In this document: piece by piece, positions 7,913 to 30,361 of the stretch | Position numbering within the stretch: the stretch's first letter is position 1 | Layout: the number at the start of each line of letters is the position of its first letter | Source of the DNA: Candidatus Omnitrophota bacterium | GTDB lineage: Bacteria; Omnitrophota; Gorgyraeia; JAFGHF01 | DNA: 64,000 bases | Assembly: GCA_020341815.1 (NCBI GenBank) | Contig: CP070837.1 | Location: forward strand, 1,368,195 to 1,432,194 | Direction of reading: 5' to 3' | Program-made: the position numbers and the translations under genes | The notes under the pieces: generated by a model | The model's input: only the letters and a program-made list of their open reading frames with translations | Databases searched by the model: none | What the model was told of the DNA's origin: nothing

Positions 7913-8059
7913 GAGAGAGGCACTTTTCGGTTTAAAAAGGGGTATTTCTTTTGGTGCGTGAAGTGTTGCACCTATTTAGTTTTGCCCGCCAAGGGACCAG
8001 TAAAGTAGGTCCTTTATATATATCCTTCTCCATGAGGAAAATATGTGGGGTGGGATCAT

Positions 8060-8132: not shown

Positions 8133-8318
8133 TTAATACCCTTGTAGGGGTATATAAAATAGATGAGATAAATGATAAAGATATGATAGCAGTTTCTACT
8201 TTGAAAATAGGACACTTTCCCGAACAATTTGAGAAATGGTATATATCTTTAAAATTTGTCTAAGGATAACAAGAAAGTTAACATTCTCAGTAAATGGTGA
8301 TATTGTGGAGGCAAATAT

Positions 8319-14745: not shown

Positions 14746-15420
14746 ATGAATCCCTCCGAATTAAAGAAAAAGACATTGATATGGACTGTCGTGTCGTTTT
14801 TGATGATGGGGCTGCTTTTGTTTTTGCCTGCGGGAACCGTGTTTTATTGGCAGGCCTGGGTGTATATGGCGATTCTATTTGTGCCTATGCTATTTGCCAT
14901 CGGGTATTTACTTAAATATGATCCTGTGTTATTGGAGCGCAGGTTGAGATTGAAGGAAAAGCTGGTGCTTCAGGATAGGCTCATCAAATGGGCCTATTTG
15001 ATCTTTGGGTTGTTTCTTGTGATTCCGGGCCTGGATCAGCGTTATCATTGGTCGAAGGTGGCGCCGGCAGTGGTGGTGCCGGCAGAAATATTGGTTTTAG
15101 CCGGATATATATTATGTTTATGGGTGTTTAAAGAGAATCCCTATGCCTCGCGCATTGTTGAGGTAATGCCGGAGCAGAAGGTGGTTACTACCGGCCTGTA
15201 TGCGCTGGTGCGCCATCCTATGTATCTGGGGGCATTAGTCATGTATGTTTTTACGCCGCTTGCTCTGGGCTCTTACTGGGCGCTGTTACTTATTCCTTTC
15301 TTGACAATTTTTCTGGTGCTCCGAATCCTCGATGAGGAAAAATTATTATTGCGCCAGTTGAGAGGTTATTGGGAATATACCCAAAAGACCAGGTATCGTT
15401 TAATCCCGGGCATCTGGTAA
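14746..15420 (+). CDS. isoprenylcysteine carboxyl methyltransferase (ICMT) / phospholipid methyltransferase family membrane protein
   Basis: Multi-TM protein with VTTGLYALVRHPMYLGALVMY and a C-terminal EE..L motif, typical of ICMT/PEMT families. The stop sits inside family-A repeat copy 4. Confidence 0.6.
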   Translation: MNPSELKKKTLIWTVVSFLMMGLLLFLPAGTVFYWQAWVYMAILFVPMLFAIGYLLKYDPVLLERRLRLKEKLVLQDRLIKWAYLIFGLFLVIPGLDQRYHWSKVAPAVVVPAEILVLAGYILCLWVFKENPYASRIVEVMPEQKVVTTGLYALVRHPMYLGALVMYVFTPLALGSYWALLLIPFLTIFLVLRILDEEKLLLRQLRGYWEYTQKTRYRLIPGIW

Positions 15421-15759: not shown

Positions 15760-15787
15760 GAACCGGAACCCGGGAAAGGAAGTGACT

Positions 15788-17329
15788 ATGGAAAATAAGC
15801 CTTGGTATATGAGAGTGTTATTAGCTATACAGAGTTTCTTTACGGACATCATAGGTACTATTTTTAAGAAGATCTTTCGCATAAATGTCGGCGCGAGTGA
15901 TAACGGCAACGGTGGCACAAACGCTGATGACACTGACACTGACACTGACACTGACACTGACACCGATACTGATACCGATACTGATACTATGATTCAGTGG
16001 CTGAAGACCAATGTTTTTGCAGATGGTATGCCCCGCAGTTTTGAAGTCCCGAAAGATTGGAGTGCAATTGGCGAGCCTGATACGGTGGAAGGGGTTATCG
16101 AAAGGATTATTATTAATAATAGCATCAGTACTTACGATGGCGCTACCTGGCAGATAGCTTTAGCTGTGGAAGGCGGAAAAGATAATTTAGCTGCCGCCGA
16201 TAAGTTTACCGAGGTTCTTAACAGTGGCAGCTGGTCTGAGCTGGAAATCATACGCGGCTACAAAGAATTTATCTATAGGGGTAAAAGATTGCCTGAGCAA
16301 AATGCCTATTTCTTCAGGCTTATTTCCCCTAACTGGCAGCAGCCTGACCCGTTAGATGGTAAGACCCATATTAAGGGATATCCCGGGCCAGATTATGATC
16401 GTGACCTTATTGTTTGGGCCGACTGGAAGCCGATTACAGGGGAAAATGCCTGGGTTATTATAGGTGCATTACAAACTGCCTATAAGAAATATAATGGAGA
16501 GGTTCCCTTAGACAAAGACGAGTTCAAATTGGCAGAAAGCATTATTCCGGCAATGGAGGCTCTGCAGATAGATATGGGAGCTATTTTGCATGCGCCGGAA
16601 GGTACTGACGGCAAGGACCCCGATGAGATCTCTACCGAAAATGACCTTTCGGCCTATGCCGCCTTGAAGATGATGCATAAAGTTACTAATGACTCTAGAT
16701 ATGATAGAATGATGCAGGGCCTGAGGAGCTATTTCATAGAATATGCTTTTGACAAAAGTAATAATATCTTCTATCAAGGGGGAAAATTCAAAAATAATAA
16801 CTTTAGCCCTAACCTAACCTTTGCGGTTGATTGTCAAACATGGGGTATTATGGTATTGACCCCTAAGACAATAGATGAATGGTTTAATGAAGAAGGCTTG
16901 GCCTATAAAATATGGAAGAATACCAAGAGACGTGCCGGCTATTATGATGTAAACGGTGTTTTAAGAGGGGTAGGTTATAGCGATGAAAAAGATATCTTAA
17001 GTGTAGAGTGGACGGCAGGCGCCATTTTTGCTGCTCATGCCTTAGCCGATTATTACAAGGATAGTCGGGGGGAGGAAGCTGCCAGGGATGCTCGTACTAT
17101 GAGGGAGGGTATCGATGAACTGAAATTGAAAATTAACAGCAAAGAGACCGCCTACTATTATGCTAATAAACGGTATTATATACCCTTTGGTTGGTGGGCT
17201 AACCCTATACTCAGCACCACTTCTACGGCTTGGGTATACTTTGTAGATAAAGGCTTTGATCCTTTCTTGCTTGGAGGAAGAAAGGATATTTCTATTTCAA
17301 TTCCCAATTTTTCGAATTCCTTAAAATAA
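15788..17329 (+). CDS. hypothetical protein with an N-terminal (Thr-Asp)10 low-complexity tract
   Basis: ORF-track start 15782 is GTG. ATG at 15788 has RBS GGAAAGGAAG. No catalytic motif identified. Glycosidase-like alpha-toroid is possible but unsupported. Confidence 0.5.
   Translation: MENKPWYMRVLLAIQSFFTDIIGTIFKKIFRINVGASDNGNGGTNADDTDTDTDTDTDTDTDTDTDTMIQWLKTNVFADGMPRSFEVPKDWSAIGEPDTVEGVIERIIINNSISTYDGATWQIALAVEGGKDNLAAADKFTEVLNSGSWSELEIIRGYKEFIYRGKRLPEQNAYFFRLISPNWQQPDPLDGKTHIKGYPGPDYDRDLIVWADWKPITGENAWVIIGALQTAYKKYNGEVPLDKDEFKLAESIIPAMEALQIDMGAILHAPEGTDGKDPDEISTENDLSAYAALKMMHKVTNDSRYDRMMQGLRSYFIEYAFDKSNNIFYQGGKFKNNNFSPNLTFAVDCQTWGIMVLTPKTIDEWFNEEGLAYKIWKNTKRRAGYYDVNGVLRGVGYSDEKDILSVEWTAGAIFAAHALADYYKDSRGEEAARDARTMREGIDELKLKINSKETAYYYANKRYYIPFGWWANPILSTTSTAWVYFVDKGFDPFLLGGRKDISISIPNFSNSLK
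15926..15988 (+). repeat. hexanucleotide microsatellite (GACACT/GATACY)x10 encoding (TD)n
   Basis: Read directly from the sequence. The unit is in-frame (6 nt), so expansion or contraction changes linker length without shifting the frame. Confidence 0.8.
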
Positions 17330-17372
17330 TAAGGACGGGAAAAATTCCGGGGATAGCTTACTTAATTCCCGG
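17323..17372 (+). repeat. family-A repeat copy 5 (AATTCCGGGGATAGCTTACTTAATTCCCGG), preceded by the 16-mer AAAATAATAAGGACGG
   Basis: The 16-mer also occurs at 21610 and 23593 inside terminator hairpins. The repeat overlaps the stop of the 15788..17329 gene. Confidence 0.5.
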
Positions 17373-17391
17373 ATAAATACCGCTTCAAAAC

Positions 17392-17760
17392 ATGAAAAAT
17401 ATTATAATCGAAAGCGCAGGCGGAAAGATTGAGTTAAAAGTAGAGCCCCTTGATAACCCCACCTCCAGGAAAATCTCATCATCCTTACCTATAGAATCAA
17501 GAGCCGAAACCTGGGGAGACGAAATATATTTTGATACGGGTATTGCGGCCTCTGCTTCCGGCGGGACTCTGGATGTCGATGTAGGGGATATCGCATATTG
17601 GCCGGAAGGAAAATGCCTGTGTATATTTTTCGGCAGGACCCCTGCCAGCAGTGGTGAAAAGCCTGCTCCGGCAAGTGAAGTCGTTATTGTGGGAAAGGCG
17701 CGACTTAATCCCGAATCGTTGCGCAGGGTAAAGCCGGGTTCCAAAATAAGGGTCAGCTAA
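17392..17760 (+). CDS. cyclophilin-like fold protein (PF04126/TM1367-like)
   Basis: 122 aa. GDIAYWPEG..LCIFFG resembles the Cyclophil_like family. Confidence 0.45.
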   Translation: MKNIIIESAGGKIELKVEPLDNPTSRKISSSLPIESRAETWGDEIYFDTGIAASASGGTLDVDVGDIAYWPEGKCLCIFFGRTPASSGEKPAPASEVVIVGKARLNPESLRRVKPGSKIRVS

Positions 17761-17766
17761 AGAAAA

Positions 17767-18141
17767 ATGCCTATGGCAGTCGATAAGATATTGAAGCGCC
17801 TGGCCAAATCAAGGTTCAGGTCGAGCTTTAAATTAAACGATAAGGATATCGAATACATAAATAAAAAGGGCTTGGGGGAAATAAAGTCTCATGCCAGAGA
17901 GTTTATTATAGAGAGGCTCGCCCCTAAGAATCCCAAAAATGACGGGCGGCAGACGCCGCTTAGAAAACACCCTGTATTTAAGGCTCAACATGCTACAGCT
18001 ACCTGTTGCAGAGGCTGCCTTAAGGAGTGGCATAAAATACCCAGTGGGCGCAAGCTGAATGGGGATAATATAGATTTTATTGTATCGCTTATAATGAGCT
18101 GGATTAGCGCGCAAGCAGATGCAAAGGATAAAGTTAGTTAA
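17767..18141 (+). CDS. DUF4186 family protein
   Basis: FKL..KD..YI ... RLAP.NP.NDGRQTP..KHPVFKAQHATATCCRGC...WH.IP matches the DUF4186 signature. Confidence 0.55.
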   Translation: MPMAVDKILKRLAKSRFRSSFKLNDKDIEYINKKGLGEIKSHAREFIIERLAPKNPKNDGRQTPLRKHPVFKAQHATATCCRGCLKEWHKIPSGRKLNGDNIDFIVSLIMSWISAQADAKDKVS

Positions 18142-18625
18142 AGGTGATATTACCGGGCTTTCGGTGGATGCTATTGTAAATGCCGCTAATGCGTATTTAC
18201 AGATGGGCGGCGGTGTGGCCGGGGCCATCTTGCGCAAAGGGGGCCGCTCCATACAGGATGAATGCGATAAAATCGGCTTTACCCCTGTGGGTGAGGCGGC
18301 TATAACCGGCGGGGGAAAATTAAAAGCAAAATATGTTATCCATGCCGTAGGGCCGAGGATGGGGGAGGGCGAAGAAGATAATAAACTTTTAAACGCTACG
18401 TTGAACAGCCTGAAGATAGCGCAAAAGAGGCGCTTGAAATCAATAGCATTCCCGGCTATATCTACGGGCATCTTTGGTTATCCCCTGGACAGATGCGCCC
18501 GGATTATGCTTAAAACTACCGATGAGTTCTTAAGTAAGAGCGACCTTCCTCAGGAAGTGATATTTTGCCTTTATGATGATAAAGCCTACCGGATGTTTGA
18601 GAAGACCCTTGAAGATTTCAGTTAA
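18119..18625 (+). CDS. macro domain (ADP-ribose-binding / O-acetyl-ADP-ribose deacetylase-like) protein
   Basis: VKGDITGLSVDAIVNAANAYLQMGGGVAGAI ... AITGGGKLKAKYVIHAVGP are canonical macro-domain motifs. Confidence 0.8.
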   Translation: MQRIKLVKGDITGLSVDAIVNAANAYLQMGGGVAGAILRKGGRSIQDECDKIGFTPVGEAAITGGGKLKAKYVIHAVGPRMGEGEEDNKLLNATLNSLKIAQKRRLKSIAFPAISTGIFGYPLDRCARIMLKTTDEFLSKSDLPQEVIFCLYDDKAYRMFEKTLEDFS

Positions 18626-18830
18626 AGTTAAACCTCAGGCAAAGCAGGATATGGTCCGGAAGATCGGCCCTGGCGATTATACGGTTTGGGTAAAGGCCAA
18701 GGCCTTAGAGGGCAAAGCCAATCAGGCGGTGGTAGAGGTATTAGCCGAATATTTCGGCGTGGCTAAATCCAAAATAGCCCTTCTTAAGGGCAAAAAGACA
18801 AGAAATAAAGTCTTTATGGTTGAGAGATGA
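18573..18830 (+). CDS. DUF167 (YggU) family protein
   Basis: ISVKVKPQAK..M.......YTVWVKAKALEGKANQAVVEVLAEYFGVAKS matches DUF167. The true start may be TTG at 18609, which would remove most of the overlap with the macro gene. Confidence 0.5.
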   Translation: MMIKPTGCLRRPLKISVKVKPQAKQDMVRKIGPGDYTVWVKAKALEGKANQAVVEVLAEYFGVAKSKIALLKGKKTRNKVFMVER

Positions 18831-19807
18831 AGACATTAATTCTGGATAGAAAGACTATAGAGAAGCTGGTGCGGATAAAGGAATGCATCAAGGCGGTGGA
18901 ATATGCCTTCAGGGAGTATGGCTTAGGGAAAGTCCAGATGCCGCCCAAGATTTATCTTCATCTGGATAAATACCAGGGGGATTTTCGGGCTATGCCGGCT
19001 TATATAGAGAGATTGGACAGGTGTGCGCTGAAATGGGTTAACGTTCATCCGCGCAATAAAATCTTTGGCCTGCCTGCTGTTATGGCCGTGATTATCTTAA
19101 GCAACCCCAAAAATGCGCTTCCTTTGTGTGTTATGGACGGCACATACGCCACCAATCTGCGCACAGGCGCTGCCGGGGCCGTGGCTGCCAGGTATCTGGC
19201 CAGGAAGGACTCAAAAATAATAGGATTAGTAGGCTGCGGCGCGCAGGCAAAGATGCAGCTTGAAGCCCTGCAGGGGCTTTTTGATATAAAAGAGGTCAGG
19301 GTCTGGGGGCATAAGGAAGTATTCGTTAAGGACTTTATCAGAGACACGCGCCATCTGAACCTTGAATTATTGCCAATGGAAAGCGTTAAGGATTGTGTCC
19401 GGGGGAGTGATATTATTATCACTACCACGCCTTCAAAGAAGCCTCTTGTAAAATTAAAATGGCTTAAAAAAGGCGCGCATATAAACGCCATTGGCGCAGA
19501 CGCCAAAGGAAAACAGGAGCTTGAGCCGTCTATTTTAAAAAAGGCAAAAGTTGTTGTGGATTCCTGGGAGCAGGCCTCGCACAGCGGAGAGATAAATGTG
19601 CCTCTTAAGAAAAGGTTGATATCCAGAAAGGATATCTATGCCGATATCGGAGAGATCATCAGCAAAAGGAAAAAGGGAAGAGAGGATAGGGGCGAAATCA
19701 CGGTTTTTGATTCTACCGGTTTAGCCATTCAGGATGTAGCCGTTGCCAACCTGATTTATGAGACTGCCTTAAAGAAGAAAAAGGGCAAGTGGATTAAGAT
19801 TATCTAG
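18827..19807 (+). CDS. ornithine cyclodeaminase / mu-crystallin family NAD-binding protein
   Basis: Rossmann signature LVGCGAQAKMQLEAL and overall OCD-family layout. Confidence 0.75.
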   Translation: MKTLILDRKTIEKLVRIKECIKAVEYAFREYGLGKVQMPPKIYLHLDKYQGDFRAMPAYIERLDRCALKWVNVHPRNKIFGLPAVMAVIILSNPKNALPLCVMDGTYATNLRTGAAGAVAARYLARKDSKIIGLVGCGAQAKMQLEALQGLFDIKEVRVWGHKEVFVKDFIRDTRHLNLELLPMESVKDCVRGSDIIITTTPSKKPLVKLKWLKKGAHINAIGADAKGKQELEPSILKKAKVVVDSWEQASHSGEINVPLKKRLISRKDIYADIGEIISKRKKGREDRGEITVFDSTGLAIQDVAVANLIYETALKKKKGKWIKII

Positions 19808-19838
19808 GAGTTATTTTTAAAAGTATTTCTTGTATCTC

Positions 19839-19866
19839 TTGACAATTGCGGTCAAATAATTATAAT
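19839..19866 (+). promoter_or_regulatory. consensus sigma70 promoter TTGACA-N16-TATAAT
   Basis: Perfect hexamers. Drives the gene whose real start is GTG 19907 (RBS AAGGAGGG). Confidence 0.55.
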
Positions 19867-19906
19867 GTTTTTAGTAATTAATCGATTAAAGAGAAAGGAG
19901 GGATAT

Positions 19907-20950
19907 GTGAAGTTCTTGACCGTTGTTTTAGTCTTTGCAGGGCTTTTGTGCGTTTCGGTTGATGCGAATGCGGCGATGTATGCGGATAATTTTGATGATG
20001 AGGTGATGGATGCGTCTTTATGGAGCCTTATCTCGGAAGGGGGAGATCTCACAAATTTATATGAAAGCTCCGGAGTCTTAAATCTTACCTCAACAGGCGC
20101 CTATGAAAACAGCTCGAAGGATTATATATCGAAATGGGCATATAATTTAAACAAGAATTTCCGTATCAGCGCGAAGTTTAACTATAATTATACAGGCGGG
20201 GGAGACAGCGCAGTTTCGATGGGGATAGTCGGCATTGACCCGGACGGCAGCATTGGCTTGCATGCAGGAATCAGGGCAACCAGGTGCGACTATCCAAACT
20301 ATAACGGCGACTATTTTAAAATCGCAATCGAGGATGCTTCCGGCCAGGATGTGGTGCCGGATCAGTGGTATCCCAGAGGCATTACTGCCGGATACTTCAG
20401 CATTGAGTATGACGCGAAGAGAGATAGTATTACTTTCGCTGTTTTCAACAATAAGAAATTTACCCGCAAGCACCAGGTAATCAGTTATACATACGATAAT
20501 TTCAGCTTGTTGAATCTGGGCGCCTTCCGCATTTATATAGGGGGGTATGCCGACGGCGGGGCCTTGCTTGTCGAAGGAGAGGCAAATTTAGATAATTTCA
20601 AGGCAAAGGGTGATACTAAATCTACAGACCTCACAGGAACCTGGACCGTAAAAATGAATAATGTTTCGATGGAAGGTTACACTACAGAAGAAGTTACGAT
20701 GTATATTACCGATCAGCAGGGGAATCTGTTCAGAGGCTATGTGACGCCGGAAGATTATCCCTATACGAATTTCTACGGAGCATTGGTCGGAAAGGACATA
20801 TATATAACTTTCTGGGACAGCACCGCTTCCGGAAAGATGGAAAAAGGAGGAGAAAAGTTCAGCTTTGTTAGTCAGAATCAAAAATATAATCCTCCCAATA
20901 GCCCGGCAACCGCTATAGGAATAGCTGTTAAGAACAAGGAAGGTTTTTAG
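19907..20950 (+). CDS. secreted hypothetical protein (signal peptide VKFLTVVLVFAGLLCVSVDANA)
   Basis: GTG start after RBS AAGGAGGG. The ORF-track ATG at 19865 lies inside the -10 box. N-terminal signal peptide. No family assigned. Confidence 0.5.
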   Translation: MKFLTVVLVFAGLLCVSVDANAAMYADNFDDEVMDASLWSLISEGGDLTNLYESSGVLNLTSTGAYENSSKDYISKWAYNLNKNFRISAKFNYNYTGGGDSAVSMGIVGIDPDGSIGLHAGIRATRCDYPNYNGDYFKIAIEDASGQDVVPDQWYPRGITAGYFSIEYDAKRDSITFAVFNNKKFTRKHQVISYTYDNFSLLNLGAFRIYIGGYADGGALLVEGEANLDNFKAKGDTKSTDLTGTWTVKMNNVSMEGYTTEEVTMYITDQQGNLFRGYVTPEDYPYTNFYGALVGKDIYITFWDSTASGKMEKGGEKFSFVSQNQKYNPPNSPATAIGIAVKNKEGF

Positions 20951-21035
20951 GACAATATCGGGGACGCAATGCTAATTTCGAAGAAGAAATAGCTGTTGCG
21001 TCTCCGGATTTTTCCGAGTAAAAAAGAGAGGTAAG

Positions 21036-21602
21036 ATGAAATTACAAAGAGGCGAAAAGGTGATTCATGAGCTGCGGCCCGATTCGAAGATTTTGGTAAT
21101 CTGGTTTTTTACTAAGTGCCTGGGCGCTGCTTTTTTAGGGGCATTTCTAGTATTTTGGTGTTTTGGGTTTTTTGGCGGCATCGTTTTTGCAGTGACAAGA
21201 TCATCAGGGTCAGCCTGGCCGCTTGCGGTGGGTGGTATTATGGCGCTTATTGTTGCCCTGGTCTTTTTAATCATAGGGATTATTTATTGCCGCTTTCTAA
21301 GAAAGACTTATGTTTACTATATTACAAATCAGCGCTGCGTTTTTCATGGCGGAATAATCCGCAGGATTGAGCGCTCTGTGCCGTATCACAAAATTACGGA
21401 TGTCGAGGCAAGCCAGAACATTGTTGAAAGAGTGCTTGGCATTTCCAGTGTTAATATTTTCACTCCCGGCACGGCAAGCATGATGGCTCCGGCATTCGGA
21501 GGACAGCGCGCAGAGATCTCATTCGTAGGACTTAAGGACAATGAGACGCCGGCTGAAACAATAAATAAAATATTGCGAAAATACCGCTCGACAGGAGAGT
21601 AG
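21036..21602 (+). CDS. bacterial PH-domain (bPH_2/YdbS-like) membrane protein
   Basis: Two TM helices followed by YYITNQRCVFHGGIIRRIERSVPYHKITDVEASQNIVERVLGISSVNIFTPG, which matches the bPH_2 motif. Confidence 0.55.
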   Translation: MKLQRGEKVIHELRPDSKILVIWFFTKCLGAAFLGAFLVFWCFGFFGGIVFAVTRSSGSAWPLAVGGIMALIVALVFLIIGIIYCRFLRKTYVYYITNQRCVFHGGIIRRIERSVPYHKITDVEASQNIVERVLGISSVNIFTPGTASMMAPAFGGQRAEISFVGLKDNETPAETINKILRKYRSTGE

Positions 21603-21609
21603 TGTCGGT

Positions 21610-21644
21610 AAAATAATAAGGACGGCATACCCGCCGTCCTTATT
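21610..21644. terminator. bidirectional rho-independent terminator between convergent genes (AATAAGGACGGC-ATACCC-GCCGTCCTTATT)
   Basis: 12-bp perfect stem with A/T-rich flanks on both sides. It contains the 16-mer AAAATAATAAGGACGG. Confidence 0.6.
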
Positions 21645-21672
21645 GTATAATCCTTTCCTCGGATCTTATTAT

Positions 21673-23163
21673 TTACTGATTTTCTCTTGCTTCCCTCTGT
21701 TCACGCAGAAGATCTATTCTGTCCTGCGCCTGCTGCTCCAGAAGATCTATTCTGTCCTGCGCCTGTTGATCCAGAAGGGCTTGCCTATCTTCTCCCTCTT
21801 GCGCCAGAAGGTCTATTCTATCTTCTCCCTCTTGCGCCAGAAGGTCTATTCTATCCTGCTCCTCTTGCTGCAGAAGCTCTACTCTGGCTTGAGCCTCTTG
21901 GTCCAGAAGATCTTGTCTATCCTGCGCATTCTGCTCCAGAAGTTCAACTCTGGCTTCAGCCTCTTGACGCATAATCTCTGTTTGGTCTATCCTGTCCTGC
22001 GTTTGCTTGTACATAAGGTCTATTCTATCCTGCGTCTGTTTGCTCAAGAGTTCTACTCTGGCCTGTGCCTCTTGGTTCAGGAGGTCTAGCCTATCCTGCG
22101 CCTCTTTACTCAGAAGATCTACTCTATCTTGCGCATACTGGTCCAGAAGAGCTACCCTGTCCTGCGCCTGCTGCTCCAGAAATTCAACTCTGGCTTCAGC
22201 CTGTTCACGCAGAAACTCTATCCTATCCTGCGCATACTGATCTAGAAGGTCTACTCTATCCTGCGCATATTGCGCCAGGAGATCTACTCTATCCTGACCC
22301 TCTTTCTTCAGGAGATCTACTCTATCCTGTGCCTGTTGCTCCAGAAGATCTATCCTGTCCTGCGCATACTGGTCCAGAAGAGCCAATCTGTCCTGGGCCT
22401 GTTGATCTAGAAGTGCTGCTCTTGCTATAGCATCCTGCTCTACCTTGTCACGCAGAAACTCTATCCTATCCTGCGTATTTTGCTCTATGAGATCTGCTCT
22501 GTCCTGGGCCTGCTGCTCCAGAAGTTCAACTCTTGCCGCGGCCTGTTCACTGAGAAGGTCAACTCTGTCCTGCGCATACTGATCCAGAAGGGCTACCCTG
22601 GCCTGCGCCTCTTGTTCCAGGACCTCTGCTCTGGTCTTCGCAGCTTTTCGCCTCTCTATCGCAGCTTTGCGAAGGCCCTTCTTTCTGTCACGGACATTTT
22701 CACGCAGAGCCTTTTCTCGGGTCTTCGCGCTCTTCTTCAAGACCTTCGTCCTGTCTTTGGCCTGTTTACTCAGGAGTTTTTCCCGGTCTTTGGCCTGTTT
22801 ACTCAGGACCTTTGCCCTTGTCTTCGCACCCTTTTTTCTGTCTATCGCAGCCTTGTGAAGGCCCTGCTTTCTGTCCTGGGCCTGTTTACTCAGGACCTTT
22901 GCCCTTGTCTTCGCATTCTTTTCCAGGAGCCTTTGCCTCTCCCGTGCCTGTTTACGCAGAACCTTTGTCCTGTCCTGTGCGTTTTTGCGCAGAAGCCTTT
23001 GCCTGTCCCGCGCCTGTTTACGCAGAAGCCTTGCCCGTGCCTGGGCCTCTTTGGTTTGACCTACCGCAGCTTCCTGAAGGGCCTGCGTAACTGTTGGCAT
23101 AGCAAGGTTTAGGAAGAGGACTACTAATACTAGCCTTAATACTACCTCAATATGCCGTTTCAT
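21673..23163 (-). CDS. secreted repetitive protein with about 40 tandem 11-residue repeats (AQDRVDLLxQx), apolipoprotein/LEA-like amphipathic-helix architecture
   Basis: Signal-peptide-like N-terminus MKRHIEVVLRLVLVVLFLNLAMPTVTQA. Strong RBS AAGGGAGGAG on the minus strand. The DNA-level 33-nt periodicity creates multiple shadow ORFs on the + strand. Confidence 0.6.
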   Translation of the reverse strand: MKRHIEVVLRLVLVVLFLNLAMPTVTQALQEAAVGQTKEAQARARLLRKQARDRQRLLRKNAQDRTKVLRKQARERQRLLEKNAKTRAKVLSKQAQDRKQGLHKAAIDRKKGAKTRAKVLSKQAKDREKLLSKQAKDRTKVLKKSAKTREKALRENVRDRKKGLRKAAIERRKAAKTRAEVLEQEAQARVALLDQYAQDRVDLLSEQAAARVELLEQQAQDRADLIEQNTQDRIEFLRDKVEQDAIARAALLDQQAQDRLALLDQYAQDRIDLLEQQAQDRVDLLKKEGQDRVDLLAQYAQDRVDLLDQYAQDRIEFLREQAEARVEFLEQQAQDRVALLDQYAQDRVDLLSKEAQDRLDLLNQEAQARVELLSKQTQDRIDLMYKQTQDRIDQTEIMRQEAEARVELLEQNAQDRQDLLDQEAQARVELLQQEEQDRIDLLAQEGEDRIDLLAQEGEDRQALLDQQAQDRIDLLEQQAQDRIDLLREQREARENQ

Positions 23164-23591
23164 GGTGTTCTCATCTCCTCCCTTATGATGTATATTATGA
23201 TAAATATATTAATAATATTGTTATTTTTTAGGCTTAAAAGTGCTTGGTTTGACTAATTACTTGCTTGGCAGGGGGGATTTACACCTCCTATCCCATACCA
23301 TTAAAGTGTATCACATAAAAAGGGCTTTTTCAATAGGGGGGAGGTAGCTGATTTAGGGATAGAATGGGGTATATTTTGAAGAAATCTATTAGAATATGGC
23401 GATAAGGTATATGTTATGGGCAAGATTGTTCAAAAATCCTCAAAAACAGGGATTTTTTGGCTAAAATGGCGGGCTAAATTGGCCAAAAAGCCCATGCCTT
23501 GGGGGGTAGCCAGGGGGTGAAATACCGGCTTCAAGGAAAGATAACTATTGTGTCACCTAACTTTTACCCAGGATTTGCTTCCGGATACCCT

Positions 23592-23633
23592 TAAAATAAT
23601 AAAGACGGCAGATTTGCCGTCCTTATTATATTA
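23592..23633 (-). terminator. rho-independent terminator of the minus-strand gene (GACGGCA-GATT-TGCCGTC) inside an AAAATAATAAAGACGGC motif
   Basis: 7-bp stem. On the minus strand it is followed by a T-rich run (TTTATTATTTTAAGGG). Confidence 0.5.
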
Positions 23634-23648
23634 TTATATTTTATTATA

Positions 23649-24152
23649 TTATTTTCCTAGCGCTTTTTGCCTTGCTTCCCTTTCTTCGTTCAGAAGGTTT
23701 TGCCTTGCTTCCCTCTCTTCGCTCAGGAGGTTTTGCCTTGCTTCCTTCTCTTCGCTCAGGAGGTCTTGCCTGGCCTCTTTGTTGCTCTTCAGGAGGTCCT
23801 GCGTGGCCTGTTTGTTGCTCTTCAGGAGGTCCTGCGTGGCCTGTTTGTTGCTCTTCAGGAGGTCCTGCCTGTTCTGGTTGTTGGTATTCTTGAGCTCTTG
23901 CCTGGCCTGTTCCTCTTCGATCCTCTTCTTTTGCCGGGCCTCCTCGCGTTGACGCAGAAGCTCCCGCCTGGCTTCGTTCCGTTGACGCAGAAGCTCCCGC
24001 CTGGCTTCGTTCCGTTGACGCAGAAGCTCTTGCCTGGCCTGTGCAGCTTCTTGGCTGTCTGCTTCGGCTTTCTGTGCAACTGTTGCCACAGCTAGATTGA
24101 ACAAAAGAGCTATTACCACTAATCTTAAAACCAGCTTAATTCTCCGTCTCAT
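23649..24152 (-). CDS. secreted 11-residue-repeat protein, paralog of 21673..23163 (EARRELLRQRN repeats)
   Basis: N-terminus MRRRIKLVLRLVVIALLFNLAVATVAQKA is homologous to the larger paralog. RBS GGAGGAG. The RBS-containing 24-mer is tandemly duplicated at 24149..24215. Confidence 0.55.
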   Translation of the reverse strand: MRRRIKLVLRLVVIALLFNLAVATVAQKAEADSQEAAQARQELLRQRNEARRELLRQRNEARRELLRQREEARQKKRIEEEQARQELKNTNNQNRQDLLKSNKQATQDLLKSNKQATQDLLKSNKEARQDLLSEEKEARQNLLSEEREARQNLLNEEREARQKALGK

Positions 24153-24405
24153 AATGCTCTCCTCCTTTCTTAAAAGTTGGTGTATTTAATGCTCACCTCC
24201 TTTCTTAAAAGTCAGGGCATTTATAGTAGATATAATATAACACATAATAAAGACTTTTACAATAAGTATTTTAAGTATTTTTTTAAGAAACAGGATAGAA
24301 AATCGCTCAAAAAAAGGCCTCAAAAATAGGGCTTTTTTTGGTAATTTCCATAGTTGCTTTTTGGCTCATTTTTTGGTATATTGATATTCCAGGTGGGGAG
24401 TAAAA

Positions 24406-25311
24406 ATGAAAATAAAGAAGATACCCCTTTTCATAACGCTGATTCTCCTTTTTGCCTTTGGAGGATATTTTGGCCAGTGGCAATTTCAAAAAGCCAGAAA
24501 AGAGCAAATTGCATATGAGGCATGGGAAGAATTACAGCAAAGTGTCAAAACCGAAATAAGCCGGTTTAACGGCAAAGCAGGAATAGTTATTAAGGATTTA
24601 GAGACGGGGCGGGAATTGGCATTTGAGAAAAGTGAGTTATTTCCTTCGGCAAGCCTGGCTAAAATCCCCCTTATGGCAGCATGTTTTCTGGCGGCCGAGC
24701 AAGGACGGATCAGGCTTGACGATAACATAGCTTTAAAGTCATCGGATAAGCTTACCGGCTCAGGCCTCTTGAAAGATATGCCTGAGGGTACTGTCTTTAG
24801 CGTTGAGAAGCTCATCGGCCTTATGATTTATGACAGCGATAATACGGCTGCGAATATACTAACCGACTTAACAGGCCTCGATTACTTAAATAGCACCTTT
24901 GGGGACTTTGGCTTGGAGAATACAGACCTCACTCGAAAGATTGCCGATTATCAATCCCGGGATAGAGGCATTGAAAATTACACAACGGCCCAGGATATGT
25001 CCTTATTGCTGGATAAGCTATATTTAAGAAAGCTTGGGAGTGAGGATATTTCCGATGAATGTATCTCCATGCTGAAGCTGACCCGTATGAATGACCGTAT
25101 CCCCAGGTATTTGCCGCCCGAAATAAGCATTGCGCATAAGACCGGGCTTGAAAACAGCGTTTGCCATGATGCGGGTATAGTCTTTACTCCCAAAGGCGAT
25201 TTTATCATTGTCGTATTGACTAAGCATGCTAATGCCACCAGCGCCCCTTCCAAGGAATTCATCGCAAAGGTATCTTTGCATACCTATAAATATTTCAACC
25301 AGCTGCAGTAG
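24406..25311 (+). CDS. class A beta-lactamase-family serine hydrolase with N-terminal membrane anchor
   Basis: S-x-x-K (SLAK), SDN (YDSDNTAAN) and KTG (AHKTGLE) motifs in canonical order. Confidence 0.65.
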   Translation: MKIKKIPLFITLILLFAFGGYFGQWQFQKARKEQIAYEAWEELQQSVKTEISRFNGKAGIVIKDLETGRELAFEKSELFPSASLAKIPLMAACFLAAEQGRIRLDDNIALKSSDKLTGSGLLKDMPEGTVFSVEKLIGLMIYDSDNTAANILTDLTGLDYLNSTFGDFGLENTDLTRKIADYQSRDRGIENYTTAQDMSLLLDKLYLRKLGSEDISDECISMLKLTRMNDRIPRYLPPEISIAHKTGLENSVCHDAGIVFTPKGDFIIVVLTKHANATSAPSKEFIAKVSLHTYKYFNQLQ

Positions 25312-25487
25312 AATTGCGAAACCCCTGATTTTCACAAAGAGTTCTTGATATTGGCTATATTTTGTGATAATCTTTGAAACTAAAGAAAGAATTTATAGAT
25401 TCCAGGGTAGTCCATTGTGTCCAACATTTCAGTTTTGAGGGCAAGATTTCTTCAAATAACCGATGATTACAGCAGAAAGGCTTAATC

Positions 25488-26288
25488 ATGAAAATCGTAG
25501 TCTATACTTTTGGGTGCTTACCCACTATTTATATGGTAAATAAATTAACGAAAGAATTAAAAATAGACGCGTTAATATTACAGAATTCCCTTACTTTTAG
25601 GGATAGGGTTGGATTTCTGAAACACAGGCTTAAAAAATATGGAATGCTCAGGTTATGCGATGAACTGATGTTCCAGTTTTATTATCGAATTTTCTTAAAA
25701 AAGTGGGATGCGGAGCTGGCAAAGAAATATTTTCCCCAAGAATATCTTGAAGGTGCGATAGACATAGATAAAAGCATTCCCGTTTTTAAAGTCGATACAA
25801 TAAATTGCGCAAGGGCAAAGTCTTTACTGCAAAAATTAGGTCCGGACATTGTTTTCATGCAGAGCAGGGAGATGATAGATGAGGATATTTTAAATGTTGC
25901 TAAGATGGGTTTTATAGGGTGCCATCCGGGCATTCTCCCCGATTATAGAGGGACCTACGCTCCTTTTTGGACGGCTTTAAACCTGGAACTAAATAAATTG
26001 GGTTTCACTATATACATTGCAGATAAAGGGATTGATACCGGAAAAATAATTTTTCAAAAAAATATAGAACTTGATGCAACAAAAGGTACCTTTAAACTGC
26101 ATTCAGAATATATTATGTATAGAAGTATCCCTTTTATAATCTCAACTCTTAAGAAGATTTCAGAAGAAGGAATTTCATTTTTGGAAAGACCAATTTCGAA
26201 AAGTAGACTTTTTTCTCATGTCGGCCTTTTAGATTATATTTGTGCTAAAAAGAAACTAAAAAAGCTTGTTATGCATGAAAAAAGATGA
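25488..26288 (+). CDS. formyltransferase-family protein (Fmt/PurN-like catalytic domain)
   Basis: IGCHPGILPDYRGTYAPFWTALN matches the HxSLLPxxRG formyltransferase motif. Confidence 0.55.
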   Translation: MKIVVYTFGCLPTIYMVNKLTKELKIDALILQNSLTFRDRVGFLKHRLKKYGMLRLCDELMFQFYYRIFLKKWDAELAKKYFPQEYLEGAIDIDKSIPVFKVDTINCARAKSLLQKLGPDIVFMQSREMIDEDILNVAKMGFIGCHPGILPDYRGTYAPFWTALNLELNKLGFTIYIADKGIDTGKIIFQKNIELDATKGTFKLHSEYIMYRSIPFIISTLKKISEEGISFLERPISKSRLFSHVGLLDYICAKKKLKKLVMHEKR

Positions 26289-27114
26289 GATGACATCAGG
26301 AAATCATACATTTACTATACTGTTGTATCATGGCGTTGATGCGGGAGAGAAATTTTATGAACAGAGGAGCAATAAAGAACGCGAGTATATTATCACAAAA
26401 GCACAATTTAATAATCATTTAGAGCTGTTTAAGCGTTTAGGAATGCAGACGCCTCCGTTAGAACAATGTCTGAGGCAGATTCAAAATAATAAATTTGCTT
26501 CCCGGACTTTAATTTTGAGCTTTGATGATGGCGAGGAATCCGGCTATACAACAATTGCGCCTCTGTTGGAAAAATATGGGTTTAGAGGTAGCTACTTTAT
26601 AGTTGCAGGCTGGATAAATAAACCCGGATATATGACAGAAGATCAGATTCGCCAGCTACATAAAAGAGGTCATGGCATTTATTCCCATTCCATGACACAC
26701 CCATTTTTTACTAGAATTTCCGAAGCAGAGATCATGTCCGAATTAAGAGAATCAAAGGAATGCTTAGAAAAAATTTTGGGTCAAGAGGTTAAATGTTTTT
26801 CTTTACCGACAGGAGAATATGATGAGAGGTTTAAAGAATTGATTGCGCATTCGGGTTATTCATATATTTGTACTTCTCGGGAAGGATATAACAGAGTGAT
26901 GCAGAAGAGGCAATACCCATTTTTGTTGCATAGATTTGCTATTAGAAATTATACAAAGTTGCGGGATTTGAAATTCATAATCAATGCAAGAAAAATTACT
27001 AATTTGTTGTTGGCCCTCAAAGCAATAACGTTTTTTATTCTAAAAAACATTATAGGCAAAGACCGGTATGAGCGAATAAGGTCTGGCATTATCAATAATT
27101 TTTATAAAGACTAA
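26275..27114 (+). CDS. polysaccharide deacetylase (NodB homology domain)
   Basis: LSFDDGEESGY (metal-binding TFDDG-like motif) and H-S-MTHP. ORF-track start 26266 is TTG; ATG at 26275. Confidence 0.65.
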   Translation: MKKDEMTSGNHTFTILLYHGVDAGEKFYEQRSNKEREYIITKAQFNNHLELFKRLGMQTPPLEQCLRQIQNNKFASRTLILSFDDGEESGYTTIAPLLEKYGFRGSYFIVAGWINKPGYMTEDQIRQLHKRGHGIYSHSMTHPFFTRISEAEIMSELRESKECLEKILGQEVKCFSLPTGEYDERFKELIAHSGYSYICTSREGYNRVMQKRQYPFLLHRFAIRNYTKLRDLKFIINARKITNLLLALKAITFFILKNIIGKDRYERIRSGIINNFYKD

Positions 27115-27322
27115 GAGGGAATTTCAGGGACAGAAAAAGGCACAAATAGATCTCTATGTAAATACTGCCATCTAACCTATTTTGTTTCGCTAATTTTTCC
27201 TATCAAAAAATCAAAGATCAAATTGCCAAACTCGAAAGATAGATAATAGATTTATTGTACTTATATAGATATTTAATGGCTATTAATTTTCCAGAGACGG
27301 TAGTTCAATATTATGAAAAGGC

Positions 27323-28981
27323 ATGGGAGTTCTTAATGTGCCTTGGAGATTTCTATTAATGCGCAACATACGAATTATACCTCGTCTTGATGTAAAAGGA
27401 CCGAATTTGGTAAAAGGTATTCATCTCGAAGGATTAAGGGTTCTTGGTTCCCCAGAGTATTTTGCTAAGAGATATTACGAACAAGGGGCAGACGAACTTA
27501 TTTATATGGATATTGTCGCAACTCTATATGGTAGAAATAACTTAAAAGAAATAGTCGAGCGTACTGCCAAAGATGTGTTTATTCCGATAACTGTAGGCGG
27601 CGGAATTAGGAGTATCGAGGATATCCGCATCCTTTTGCGTGCAGGGGCTGATAAGATAGCGATTAATACAGCGGCCATACAGAATCCCGATCTTATTAGG
27701 GAAGGCGCTGAAACATTCGGCTCACAGTGTATTGTGCTCTATATCGAGGCAAAGGAAAAACTCGAGGGAAATTATGAAGCATTTACCGACAATGCCAGAG
27801 AAGAGACAGGAGTGGATGTTTTCGAGTGGGCATATCGTGCATATCAACTGGGAGCCGGTGAAATTTTAGTGACTTCTATTGACCGTGACGGAACCGGAGA
27901 GGGTTACGATGTAGAACTAATATCAAAGATTTCAAATACGGTCCCTATTCCAGTTGTCGCCTCCGGCGGGGCTGGTAAATTAGACGATATAATAAAGATT
28001 ATCGAAAGCACCAATGTAAGCGCCGTTGCCGCCGCTTCACTTTTCCACTACAGTCAAATCGATAAAGGATTGGCCAGATGTAAATACGAAGAGGGAAACA
28101 CAGAGTTCTTAAAAACATATGCCCAAATAGATAATTATCGTCCTAGCAGGATAAAGCCTATATCCATCTTTGACTTGAAATCGCACATGAAGAAGGCTGG
28201 GATAATTGATACACGGGTGGCCGAATTACACAGTTGTGCCGGCCTAAAAGAAGAGGAATCCAAGAATATTTTTATAAGATCCTTTAAAAATAGGCCGTCT
28301 GTAGCGGTGATAGATTATGACTGCGGCAATTTATTCAACATCACCTCTGCCTTAAAAAATATAGATGCGGATTTTCAAGTTACAGACAATGCTAAGATAG
28401 TGGCTGCATCCGACAAACTCATACTTCCAGGAGTAGGCTCTTTTGAATCTGGAATAAATAATCTAGAGAGAAGAGGGTTAATCACCCCGATTAAAGAACA
28501 CGCCAAAAAGGGTAAACCCATTTTCGGTATTTGTCTCGGAATGCAGCTTCTAATGACAGAGGGAGAAGAGTACGGTTCATATAAGGGTCTGGATTTAATC
28601 AAAGGGAGAGTGACAAGAATACCGATAGATAAAGAAAAACTTTTAACTTTTAAAATTCCGCATATCGGTTGGAATAAGATAAAATTGCCCCAACAGAAAG
28701 CCGAGGTTTCTAAGAAAGCCGAAAAAGGCCTTTGGCACAATAGTATATTGAAAAATGTATTACCCGGGAGTTTAATGTATTTTGTTCACTCTTACATTGT
28801 AATATCAGATAGTCCGGAGTGGGTACTTGCCGAGACCGAATATGGCGGGAGAAGCTTCTGTTCTGCAATCCAAAAGGATAACGTTTATGGTTGCCAATTT
28901 CATCCGGAAAGAAGTAGAGAGGTGGGACTCGATATTTATAGGCAATTTGTATTTGTGGGCATAGGGGGTAAGCATGAATGA
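27323..28981 (+). CDS. fused imidazole-glycerol-phosphate-synthase-like protein: HisF-type cyclase domain (N) + HisH-type glutamine amidotransferase domain (C), LPS/sugar-modification paralog (WbuZ-WbuY-like)
   Basis: N-terminal IIPRLDVKG...VGGGIRS (HisF barrel). C-terminal class I GATase with Cys nucleophile in GICLGMQLL and the H..E pair (FHPERS). Likely true start is ATG 27359 (MRNIRIIPRLDV). Confidence 0.75.
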   Translation: MGVLNVPWRFLLMRNIRIIPRLDVKGPNLVKGIHLEGLRVLGSPEYFAKRYYEQGADELIYMDIVATLYGRNNLKEIVERTAKDVFIPITVGGGIRSIEDIRILLRAGADKIAINTAAIQNPDLIREGAETFGSQCIVLYIEAKEKLEGNYEAFTDNAREETGVDVFEWAYRAYQLGAGEILVTSIDRDGTGEGYDVELISKISNTVPIPVVASGGAGKLDDIIKIIESTNVSAVAAASLFHYSQIDKGLARCKYEEGNTEFLKTYAQIDNYRPSRIKPISIFDLKSHMKKAGIIDTRVAELHSCAGLKEEESKNIFIRSFKNRPSVAVIDYDCGNLFNITSALKNIDADFQVTDNAKIVAASDKLILPGVGSFESGINNLERRGLITPIKEHAKKGKPIFGICLGMQLLMTEGEEYGSYKGLDLIKGRVTRIPIDKEKLLTFKIPHIGWNKIKLPQQKAEVSKKAEKGLWHNSILKNVLPGSLMYFVHSYIVISDSPEWVLAETEYGGRSFCSAIQKDNVYGCQFHPERSREVGLDIYRQFVFVGIGGKHE

Positions 28982-30275
28982 TATTGCAAGCAGCAAAATT
29001 AGAAAAGGTGTTGATACGGGATATAAGGAAAAATATAACTATTTTTTACCTAAAATTACTGCTAAAAAAATACCCTACGCTGAACATGCAGCAAATGCCT
29101 TTGATGCGCAGTTACCTCTTCGCCCTGAAGAGATAGTTTTTTGCAAGAGATGTGTCATGTCCAATCAGAGGCCGAGGATAATAATAGACGAAAAGGGTGT
29201 GTGCAGCGCATGCAATTATTTTGAATATAAAAGAAGGCATATAGACTGGGACAAACGCAGAAAACAGTTTGAAGAGTTGCTCGATCAACATCGCCGCAAG
29301 GACGGAAGATATGATGTCGTTGTCCCCTGCAGCGGCGGGAAAGATTCGGGGTTACTTGCGCATAAGCTGAAATATGAGTACGGAATGCATCCTCTTTGCG
29401 TGACATGGTCGCCATTGTTATATTCAAACATTGGTTTTCAAAATTTCCAAAATATGATCTTAGCCGGATTAAACAGCGTTTTATGTTCACCTAACCGGAT
29501 ACTACAAAGAAAACTTGCGAAACTTTGTTTTGTAATGCAGGGAGACCACTTTGAGGCATTTAGCAGGGGGCAGATATATTATCCGTTCCATGTCGCATTG
29601 GATGAAGGTGTAGATTTGGTTATGTTGGGTGAAAACCAGGAGCTCGAATATGTCGGTGACACAAAGAATGTGGACATACCCTATAATCCTATTGAGGATT
29701 GGGAGGGATATTATCACAAGGATACCAGTTTCAAAAAATTGTTAGAATTCGGTTGCGAACACGGCTATCTAGACGAAGAGGATATAAATGACCCCAGCCT
29801 TAAGTGGTATGCACCTCCGCCACGAGAAAAATTTGCGAAAGCTGGAATAAAATTTCGTTGGTACGGTTGGTACTTTAACTGGGTTCCTCAGGAAAATTAT
29901 TATTATGTAGCTGAGCATTACAATTTTCAAGCAATGCCGCGAAGGTCAGAGATGACATATTCTAAATACGCCAGTTTAGATGACTTAACCGACCCGTTTC
30001 ATTTCTATATGATGTTGATAAAATTTGGTATTGGTAGGGCTACTTCGGATGCAGCACACGAGGTCCGTGACGGACATTTGCTGAGGGATGAGGCTGTTGC
30101 GCTTGTCCGCCGTTATGACAGTGAGTTCCCGGAAAAATATTTCAAGGAATTCCTGCGGTATCTTGACATGGCTGAAGAGGAATTCTGGAGCGTGGTCAAT
30201 ACATATCGCTCTATGGCACCACACGTGTGGGAAAAAGTAAACCAAAAGTGGAAACTTAAATGCCAGGTCTCTTAA
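28974..30275 (+). CDS. N-acetyl-sugar amidotransferase (WbuX/PseA/WbpG family, PP-loop ATP pyrophosphatase)
   Basis: CxxC zinc ribbon (CKRC...CSAC) followed by PP-loop VVPCSGGKDSG. Confidence 0.75.
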   Translation: MNDIASSKIRKGVDTGYKEKYNYFLPKITAKKIPYAEHAANAFDAQLPLRPEEIVFCKRCVMSNQRPRIIIDEKGVCSACNYFEYKRRHIDWDKRRKQFEELLDQHRRKDGRYDVVVPCSGGKDSGLLAHKLKYEYGMHPLCVTWSPLLYSNIGFQNFQNMILAGLNSVLCSPNRILQRKLAKLCFVMQGDHFEAFSRGQIYYPFHVALDEGVDLVMLGENQELEYVGDTKNVDIPYNPIEDWEGYYHKDTSFKKLLEFGCEHGYLDEEDINDPSLKWYAPPPREKFAKAGIKFRWYGWYFNWVPQENYYYVAEHYNFQAMPRRSEMTYSKYASLDDLTDPFHFYMMLIKFGIGRATSDAAHEVRDGHLLRDEAVALVRRYDSEFPEKYFKEFLRYLDMAEEEFWSVVNTYRSMAPHVWEKVNQKWKLKCQVS

Positions 30276-30361
30276 AACCCATGCTTACGCATGAGAAAAA
30301 AGACGTTACTAAGAATACGCAGACAAAAGGTGCTACATGCGTAAGCAGGAGAAAGAACCCC

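Follow-up and report, generated by a model that had tools for sequence, protein, structure and literature searches.

Two neighbouring genes, here called A and B, lie on the minus strand of a 64,000-nucleotide stretch of contig CP070837.1 from a Candidatus Omnitrophota bacterium (the window), and each encodes a signal-like N-terminus followed by a tandem array of 11-residue units. Gene A (21673..23163, 496 amino acids) carries 39 such units and gene B (23649..24152, 167 amino acids) carries 12 uninterrupted ones; both begin with ATG and, as delimited from the open reading frame (ORF) list and by unit segmentation, have exactly the coordinates given in an earlier first-pass annotation of this DNA. 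The two proteins look more like straight coiled-coil rods than like lipid-binding helices of the apolipoprotein type, and the reading we favour, tentatively, is that they are a pair of exported rods of the hendecad coiled-coil type that would self-associate electrostatically in the cell envelope. The hendecad class itself is already known, whereas the A/B family is an orphan with unusual features, namely 39 near-regular hendecads, an invariant arginine adjacent to the core, and charge blocks of +40 and -40 in one chain. We regard the finding as a lead rather than a discovery; it points to no new mechanism so far.

Tandem Repeats Finder (TRF) detected 33-nt arrays through both genes, and protein self-identity at a lag of 11 residues is 0.49 in A and 0.66 in B, compared with about 0.06-0.13 at other lags. 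Segmentation by a profile and dynamic programming placed the 39 units of A over residues 38-487, close to the 40 or so copies reported at first, and the 12 units of B over residues 35-166. Spacing between the units of A is 11 residues except at four points, where it is 18, 18, 15 and 14, corresponding to insertions of +7, +7, +4 and +3. Both +7 insertions sit in a duplicated 62-residue super-repeat (TRF period 186 nt, 22618..22959) and are therefore counted as one event, and the +4 and +3 breaks fall at residues 239-242 and 397-399. The units of B contain no indels and mostly form runs of three near-identical copies (TRF arrays with 86-96% DNA matches), which indicates recent amplification. 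The consensus unit is QQAQDRVDLLD in the acidic block of A (27 units), KQAKDRAKVLR in its basic block (12 units) and EEKEARQELLR in B; the core [A/D]-R-x-x-L-L is common to both proteins, and the arginine at position 6 (Arg6) is the sole invariant residue of the A units.

Placed on a helical wheel of 11 residues per three turns (11/3), with Ala3 at 0 degrees, the consensus puts Val/Ile7 at +33 and Leu10 at -33 degrees, which together form a narrow stripe at hendecad positions a, e and h. Arg6 lies at -65 degrees (hendecad position d), Tyr/Gln2 at -98 and Leu9 at -131, and the opposite face is made of Asp5, Asp8, Asp/Glu11, Gln1 and Gln4. The register breaks of +3, +4 and +7 keep the apolar stripe of A continuous. 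In the 154-residue in-phase block of A (residues 243-396), the hydrophobic moment is 0.249 at 11/3, 0.075 at 3.6 and 0.016 at 7/2, and over in-phase blocks of 55-154 residues it is 0.20-0.36 at 11/3 (98.2 degrees) versus 0.016-0.14 at 7/2; the 3.67 harmonic likewise exceeds those at 3.5 and 3.6. The collapse of the moment at 7/2 excludes a canonical heptad coiled coil. Periodicity of 3.67 over many turns and, in A, discontinuities of 3, 4 and 7 that preserve the core agree with the hendecad class, and the wheel and periodicity analysis confirms that the 11-residue repeats described earlier are amphipathic in both, coherent at 11/3 and with no heptad periodicity seen.

Charge in A is segregated along the chain. 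The basic block (residues 29-176; 22636..23079, minus strand), which holds the duplicated super-repeat and 12 units, has a net charge of +40, and the acidic block (residues 177-496; 21676..22635, minus strand) has a net charge of -40 over 27 units and 320 of the 468 mature residues. Mature A (residues 29-496) consequently balances exactly, with 95 Lys and Arg against 95 Asp and Glu and a net charge of 0. B is far less polarised (blocks of +6, +1 and -1). Neither protein has a proline after the signal segment, glycine makes up 1.5% of A and 0.7% of B, and glutamine 15% of mature A. Pairs of opposite charge at i/i+3 and i/i+4 (0.09-0.20 per residue) are as frequent as in shuffles that preserve composition, and an ER/K single alpha-helix was rejected on this ground. 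With no excess of intrahelical salt-bridge pairs, the stability of such helices must come from packing or from a binding surface. AlphaFold2, run on the single sequence of A, predicted helices at residues 2-286 and 290-495 arranged as a long antiparallel hairpin (mean predicted local distance difference test score, pLDDT, 74; predicted template-modelling score, pTM, 0.33), and for B a single helix over residues 2-166 (pLDDT 94). Foldseek with the A model returned only generic long helical hairpins, such as those of chemoreceptors and the arms of SMC and MukB, with template-modelling (TM) scores of at most 0.41.

The protein-coding status of the repeats was judged by stop counts, codon-position entropy and the ratio of nonsynonymous to synonymous differences (pN/pS), since a codon-usage log-likelihood score was uninformative, its value for the sense frame of A being inseparable from that for the antisense (0.23 versus 0.22). 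Across A the minus frame alone is open, for 496 codons, and the other five frames hold 7-41 stops. Entropy among the acidic units of A is 1.15 at codon position 3, compared with 0.76 and 0.47 at positions 1 and 2, and Nei-Gojobori pN/pS among units in the minus frame comes to 0.44 for the acidic block of A, 0.52 for its basic block and 0.71 for B, as against 0.85 for units read antisense. Unit variation in the minus frame is mostly synonymous; Leu10 is written as CTG, CTA, CTC, CTT or TTG, and Arg6 is present in 39 of 39 A units through four codons (AGA, AGG, CGG and CGA). The mostly synonymous variation and the constancy of Arg6 argue that A and B are real protein-coding genes, beyond mere repeat DNA, and each is predicted from its flanking signals to be transcribed independently. 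Several plus-strand ORFs share the lag-11 periodicity (for example 21643..22089 and 22480..23112), and every plus frame over A contains at least 7 stops; as the first-pass annotation had advised, the plus-strand ORFs over 21643..24095 are repeat shadows and should not be called.

Both genes have the same arrangement of N-terminal signal-like segment, promoter, 5' leader with Shine-Dalgarno (SD) sequence, and terminator, and because these elements are paralogous at A and B, the entire predicted monocistronic unit is read as having been duplicated before it diverged. The first 40 residues of the two proteins are 47% identical (E = 2e-10 in a single comparison), so that the homology of their N-termini, and with the duplicated flanking elements the paralogy of the genes, was correctly recognised from the start.

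The N-terminal segment of A (residues 1-28; 23080..23163, minus strand), as read from the sequence, begins MKRH and runs through Arg10 to an h-region, LVLVVLFLNLAM, followed by PTVTQA/L, which contains Pro23 and where the slash marks the candidate cleavage junction. That of B (residues 1-26; 24075..24152, minus strand), read in the same way and by alignment to A, consists of MRRRIKLVLR, ending at Arg10, then LVVIALLFNLAVA and TVA/Q. Each therefore has several Arg or Lys residues, an apolar run of 12-16 residues and then small residues (TQA, TVA), with junctions reading LNLAMPTVTQA/LQ in A and FNLAVATVA/QK in B. Charge is positive before the apolar run and acidic after it, a bias that implies an orientation with the N-terminus inside and the C-terminus outside. 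Sec signal peptides cleaved by signal peptidase I (SPase I) combine a positively charged n-region with an h-region of 7-15 residues and small residues at positions -3 and -1. The segment is a candidate Sec-type signal peptide or, since the predicted AlphaFold2 helix runs on through the junction, possibly an uncleaved signal anchor. A lipoprotein was ruled out, as neither A nor B contains a cysteine and hence a lipobox. The description of both proteins as secreted thus holds, on inspection, for their signal-like N-termini, and export itself is a prediction from these sequence features. The cell is diderm, judging from a predicted LptD homologue encoded from position 46997 onward.

Under the reading we favour, the N-terminal segment would target A and B across the inner membrane, and beyond it each protein would form one very long hendecad alpha-helix. 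The narrow apolar stripe of Ala3, Val/Ile7 and Leu10 would run straight along the A helix, with Leu9 and the invariant Arg6 beside it, a layout that would suit a non-supercoiled coiled coil of the hendecad type packing on one or more partner helices. The opposite charge blocks of A are the proposed drive for pairing: the blocks would zip together electrostatically, helped by the apolar stripe, so that rods pair antiparallel within one folded-back chain or with neighbouring molecules. The products would be long rods or higher assemblies in the periplasm or at the cell surface, where they might serve as structural elements, spacers or scaffolds, and B would be a shorter, single-helix relative of about 21-25 nm.

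Several observations weigh against these exported, zippering rods. The hairpin of A comes from a single-sequence prediction of low pTM with no close structural match, and the fold-back is correspondingly weakly supported. A simple hydrophobic core would not normally have an invariant arginine at position d, and a stable coiled coil would be expected to contain more strongly apolar residues than the 15% or so of B. Since the basic block of A is 148 residues long and the acidic block 320, 1:1 zippering is not obvious. In addition, neither a homologue, a functionally linked neighbour nor conserved synteny among 61 related loci was found, which leaves the function without comparative support.

A period of 11 residues is no less diagnostic of hendecad coiled coils than of lipid-binding helices, and hendecad coiled coils are well described in prokaryotes, among them tetrabrachion, ATP synthase subunit b, autotransporter stalks and FilP/Scy. 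Tetrabrachion is discussed among hendecad coiled coils in PMC11676326, autotransporter stalks contain hendecad segments (PMC13580157), and surveys of hendecad families (Martinez-Goikoetxea & Lupas 2023) are cited in both papers; the initial statement that 11-residue periodicity is rarely described in bacteria was accordingly too strong. A and B have in common with the fibrous members, such as tetrabrachion and the stalks of trimeric autotransporters, long unbroken helices of period 3.67 with breaks of 3, 4 or 7 residues, poor recognition by profile libraries, and an extracytoplasmic location, which in A and B is implied by the N-terminal targeting segment. They differ in lacking sequence relatives among 1.84 billion representative proteins, and in having an Arg at the would-be core position d, blocks of +40 and -40 in A, and no globular head, anchor or autotransporter domain. 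B also resembles ATP synthase subunit b, a protein of about 160 residues in which a hydrophobic helix at the N-terminus leads into a single long helix of hendecad period, and the stalks of rotary ATPases are hendecad, right-handed coiled coils. Nonetheless, B does not match the ATP-synt_B profile, has unrelated neighbours with no atp genes among them, and is built of recent tandem duplications; the positive charges before its hydrophobic segment predict the opposite topology, with the helix outside the cytoplasm. Subunit b was rejected as an identity on the grounds of profile, neighbours and charge.

If the rod reading is right, nature would provide in A an unusually clear case of hendecads repeated at great length, with 39 units and only three independent register shifts, and its design would be unusual in combining an invariant Arg beside the apolar stripe with exactly balanced blocks of opposite charge. 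Because AlphaFold and sequence-based predictors both have difficulty with hendecads (PMC11676326), the pair would make a useful test case for coiled-coil prediction, and could be of use in protein design as well. Little has been described of the envelope proteins of Omnitrophota, since nearly all knowledge of this phylum comes from metagenomes, and A and B would add to it.

No relatives of A or B were detectable in the collections searched, and they are treated here as an orphan family. A word-indexed search of 5.8 billion clusters with A and B returned nothing, not even the proteins themselves, so that this genome lies outside that collection. An exhaustive phmmer search of A against 1.84 billion representative proteins gave 87 matches (best E = 1e-20), none of which is a true relative: they share 11- or 22-residue periods, none aligns at the N-terminus, and they include eukaryotic low-complexity proteins, Pro-containing 11-mer arrays, long 22-mer repeat proteins and N-terminal repeats of toxins. 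Scans of GTDB genomes with A, of JGI metagenomes with an alignment of the A repeat blocks and with an alignment of the A/B N-termini, and of viral contigs with A and with B likewise found no relative. Pfam, NCBIfam, PHROGs, PADLOC, PDB sequences and Rfam held nothing significant for the pair; the best PHROG E-values were 0.013-0.17, to families of unknown function, and PADLOC gave nothing meaningful, which assigns A and B to neither phage families, spanins included, nor defence families. A few of the matches, anonymous metagenomic proteins such as P0086, P0027, P0051 and P0032, resemble A and B: they are small, have a single hydrophobic segment and carry tandem helical 11-mers in which E, K, R, D, L and I abound, and the unit KKTNERLDLIN of P0032 resembles the A unit KQTQDRIDLMY. 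Matches to such metagenomic 11-mer proteins reach E-values of 1e-6 to 1e-3 from periodicity and composition alone, and these proteins differ from A and B in N-termini that cannot be aligned, anchors at other ends and the lack of a charge-block layout. The architecture of an anchor plus a helical 11-mer array thus recurs in metagenomes, in uncharacterised proteins.

The first-pass annotation took the 11-residue period as the hallmark of lipid-binding helices of the apolipoprotein, perilipin, LEA and alpha-synuclein kind. As an account of A and B, such proteins would be unfolded in solution and would lie as flat 11/3 helices on a membrane, on the outer-membrane leaflet, on vesicles or on the surface of a host cell. 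We consider this unlikely. The geometry does agree: perilipin 4, alpha-synuclein and the exchangeable apolipoproteins have tandem 11-mers in an 11/3 helix whose apolar face is aligned over great length, the giant helix of perilipin 4 having the same 11/3 geometry, and in A and B this period aligns one face over hundreds of residues, with an apolar arc, L9-(Q/Y2)-R6-L10-A3-V7, that spans about 165 degrees. Alpha-synuclein has a basic N-terminal part and an acidic C-terminal part, an order that A recalls. The basic block of A would be the best candidate for binding, with 130 windows (residues 32-165) above the HeliQuest lipid-binding discriminant (D > 1.34). The Apolipoprotein model of Pfam (PF01442) is able to detect bacterial 11-mer proteins, as two unrelated ones (P0068 and P0027) match it weakly. 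A and B, in contrast, match neither this model nor LEA_4 (PF02987), Perilipin (PF03036) or Synuclein (PF01387) at E <= 10. When A is cut into 450 windows of 18 residues, the discriminant is negative in 272 of them; the hydrophobic moment, averaged over 22-residue windows, reaches only a modest 0.25 or so, and a net charge of -40 over the 320 residues of the acidic block, two thirds of the mature protein, argues against binding to anionic bacterial membranes.

The arrangement of residues departs from the lipid-binding families as well. A class A apolipoprotein helix is punctuated by Pro and has basic residues at the boundary of the polar and apolar faces and acidic ones at the centre of the polar face; A and B have no Pro or Gly punctuation, Arg6 of A lies between Leu9 and Leu10 within the apolar arc rather than at its edge, and charges are segregated along the sequence, not around the wheel. 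The 11-mers of synuclein and perilipin are of the KTKEGV type or present a weakly hydrophobic face rich in Thr, Gly and Val, unlike the A and B consensus, whose Leu-rich core positions, with Leu-Leu in the units, would be expected in a coiled coil sooner than in a coat helix of weak hydrophobicity. Alpha-synuclein ends in a disordered acidic tail, where the acidic region of A is itself an 11-mer helix, and A and B are bacterial and predicted to be exported, in contrast to the cytosolic proteins of the perilipin and synuclein type. The period does not, in sum, point specifically to lipid binding.

A function in binding polyions or in stress protection within the periplasm seems less likely still. 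The basic block could bind lipopolysaccharide, extracellular DNA or polyphosphate and the Asp-rich block divalent cations, or the proteins could act as shields comparable to LEA, Skp, Spy or CpxP. The extreme charge blocks would suit such roles, an unbroken acidic stripe arises from Asp at positions 5, 8 and 11 of the unit, and mature B (141 residues, basic, all-helical) would be comparable in size and location to small periplasmic chaperones. However, neither protein matches OmpH (Skp), LTXXQ (CpxP/Spy) or ATP-synt_B in Pfam (E <= 10) or NCBIfam (E <= 1), and LEA_4 was negative as described above. Hydrophilins are highly hydrophilic and contain more than 6% Gly; A and B fall far below this and, with no profile match, are assigned neither to the hydrophilins nor to LEA group 3. 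Moreover, they are predicted to be rigid helices rather than disordered, and no stress-regulon or metal-handling genes adjoin them.

The rod reading can be extended to a lineage-specific, self-complementary "charge-zipper" system, in which straight exported helices, each with a +40 and a -40 block, would join antiparallel or head-to-tail. The resulting polymer would be a filament, a lattice or an Arg-lined helical tube outside the cytoplasm, within the envelope of an ultra-small Omnitrophota cell. This is a speculative proposal that we rate as a long shot. If true, the assembly could fix the spacing of the envelope or act in contacts with host or prey cells, and would constitute an extracellular cytoskeleton-like element made from a repeat without known relatives.

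A distinct geometric alternative, which we consider improbable, is a helical barrel or tube in which two apolar seams (A3/V7/L10 and L9/Y2) flank Arg6, so that helices would stand side by side with guanidinium groups lining the lumen. According to PMC7354561, the H protein of phiX174 forms a decameric tube that spans the cell wall, and the side chains on the inside of this tube are mainly amides and guanidinium groups. The unit consensus places Arg6 (295 degrees) between Leu10 (327) and Leu9 (229), and the invariance of Arg6 and the high Gln content of mature A would be in keeping with a lining of this kind. The argument is purely geometric, however: there is no homology to H proteins, with PHROGs and viral contigs negative, the second seam is weak since Tyr occupies position 2 in only 5 of the 27 acidic units, and B lacks the Val7 seam. 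Finally, a non-functional origin, as a fast-evolving 33-bp minisatellite with a chance open frame or an annotation artefact, is highly improbable, for although the absence of homologues from every collection searched, the near-identity of some adjacent units (a sign of recent slippage or duplication) and the indifferent codon-usage score would fit it, a long open frame lies beside stop-filled ones, codon-position entropy, pN/pS and the four-codon constancy of Arg6 favour the minus frame, the diverged paralogues keep promoter, SD, signal-like N-terminus and terminator, and indels are limited to the helix-compatible +3, +4 and +7.

Each gene is preceded by a predicted sigma-70-like promoter with an extended -10 element. 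That of A (23305..23336, minus strand) reads TTGAAA, a 17-nt spacer with TG, and TACACT, and that of B (24234..24265, minus strand) TTGTAA, a 17-nt spacer with TG, and TATATT; transcription is predicted to start near 23298 for A and near 24227 for B. Their common 32-nt context, TTATTG[A/T]AAAAG..TTATGTG.TA.A.T, occurs twice in the 64 kb, at A and B only, and not at all in shuffled sequence. Each gene has two copies of a 17-nt motif resembling A5-GCCC/TCCC-T5 (AAAAAGCCCTTTTTATG and variants) in its upstream region, one within the promoter spacer (23314..23330 and 24243..24259) and the other some 80-130 nt farther upstream (23441..23457 and 24321..24337). The motif could be an operator for a regulator common to A and B.

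The strong ribosome-binding sites (RBSs) noted at the outset are present in both genes: the SD of A, GGGAGGAG (23175..23182, minus strand), lies 11 nt before the ATG, and that of B, GGAGGAG (24159..24165, minus strand), 6 nt before it. The tandem duplication of the B RBS region also proved real (24152..24223, period 35, 2.1 copies, 86% matches), its upstream copy (24187..24221, minus strand) having GGAGGTG at 24194..24200 and no start codon. RNA folding predicted base pairing between the two 35-nt units of the B leader, at -21.1 kcal/mol (z = -3.4); the resulting hairpin would leave the true SD partly masked, and could be an mRNA-stabilising element or a translational control element. The A leader (23150..23298) gave no significant predicted fold (z = +0.7). 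In each leader a further SD-like element, AGGAGGTG, with ACTTTTAAG after it, lies upstream of the true RBS. Downstream, a predicted hairpin terminator with a T-run follows each gene, at 21609..21644 (minus strand, AAGGACGGCgggtatGCCGTCCTT) after A and at 23598..23633 (minus strand, GACGGCaaatctGCCGTC) after B. The A and B terminators are paralogous (74% identity over 62 nt), and that of A is common to a convergent plus-strand gene at 21036..21602.

The setting of the pair was compared with that of related genomes by means of an adjacent beta-lactamase-family gene, whose best relatives (73% identity) are in Candidatus Omnitrophota metagenome-assembled genomes (MAGs) and which is conserved at 43-73% identity across many such MAGs. 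None of the 61 loci gathered through this gene (L001-L061) and compared with positions 15782..30275 of the window has an ORF with a lag-11 repeat, and the window neighbours of the beta-lactamase gene are absent from them, save for a weak match to the polysaccharide deacetylase in L048, so that at this divergence almost nothing of the gene order is conserved. The nearest neighbours of A and B, all on the opposite strand, encode a membrane protein with a bacterial PH domain, an unknown secreted protein, a formyltransferase and a polysaccharide deacetylase, with no obvious functional link to the pair. Elsewhere the window encodes DnaK, HrcA, MiaA, MiaB, HflX, the LptD homologue, a type I restriction-modification system and many B12-radical SAM genes; a magnetosome or biomineralisation protein was dropped as a candidate, there being no mam or mad context in the window. 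The claim that A and B are the only minus-strand genes in 64 kb holds for ORFs of at least 150 residues and does not extend to smaller minus-strand genes. At that length every other minus-strand ORF overlaps a plus-strand ORF, and when eight of the overlapping ORFs were compared with Pfam, none of six on the minus strand matched and one plus-strand partner had a Macro domain; further plus-strand partners are radical SAM, GGDEF and similar genes. No tRNA genes were found in the window.

Several other features of the window deserve mention. A plus-strand gene at 13656..14675 encodes a strong match to the Tle1-like phospholipase catalytic domain of type VI secretion systems (E = 3e-82) and adjoins a membrane methyltransferase of the ICMT/PEMT family (14746..15420, plus strand). 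No type VI secretion genes were obvious among the roughly 40 window ORFs put through Pfam or NCBIfam, with some 20 ORFs of at least 150 residues outside that scan. Just beyond (15782..17329, plus strand) lies a gene for a 515-residue orphan protein with an N-terminal (Thr-Asp)x9 run and no Pfam or NCBIfam match. The restriction-modification system (2299..7677, plus strand) comprises HsdR and an HsdM-like methyltransferase, together with a 431-residue ORF (6382..7677) that is placed as a specificity subunit by position only. It is followed at 8001..10000 by an AT-rich stretch (33% GC) containing several ORFs without a family match, which may be a defence island or foreign DNA. Genes for B12-binding radical SAM proteins, several of them clustered at the right end of the window (58211..62571, plus strand) and also present at 30260..31795, are consistent with an anaerobic lifestyle. 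Two of the related Omnitrophota MAG loci encode FHA/kinase-like proteins of about 900 residues (12174..14924 in L013 and 8200..10845 in L016) with very regular TPR-like tandem repeats of 34 residues and up to 96% identity at lag 34; these repeats are unrelated to those of A and B and represent another case of recently amplified repeats in the phylum.

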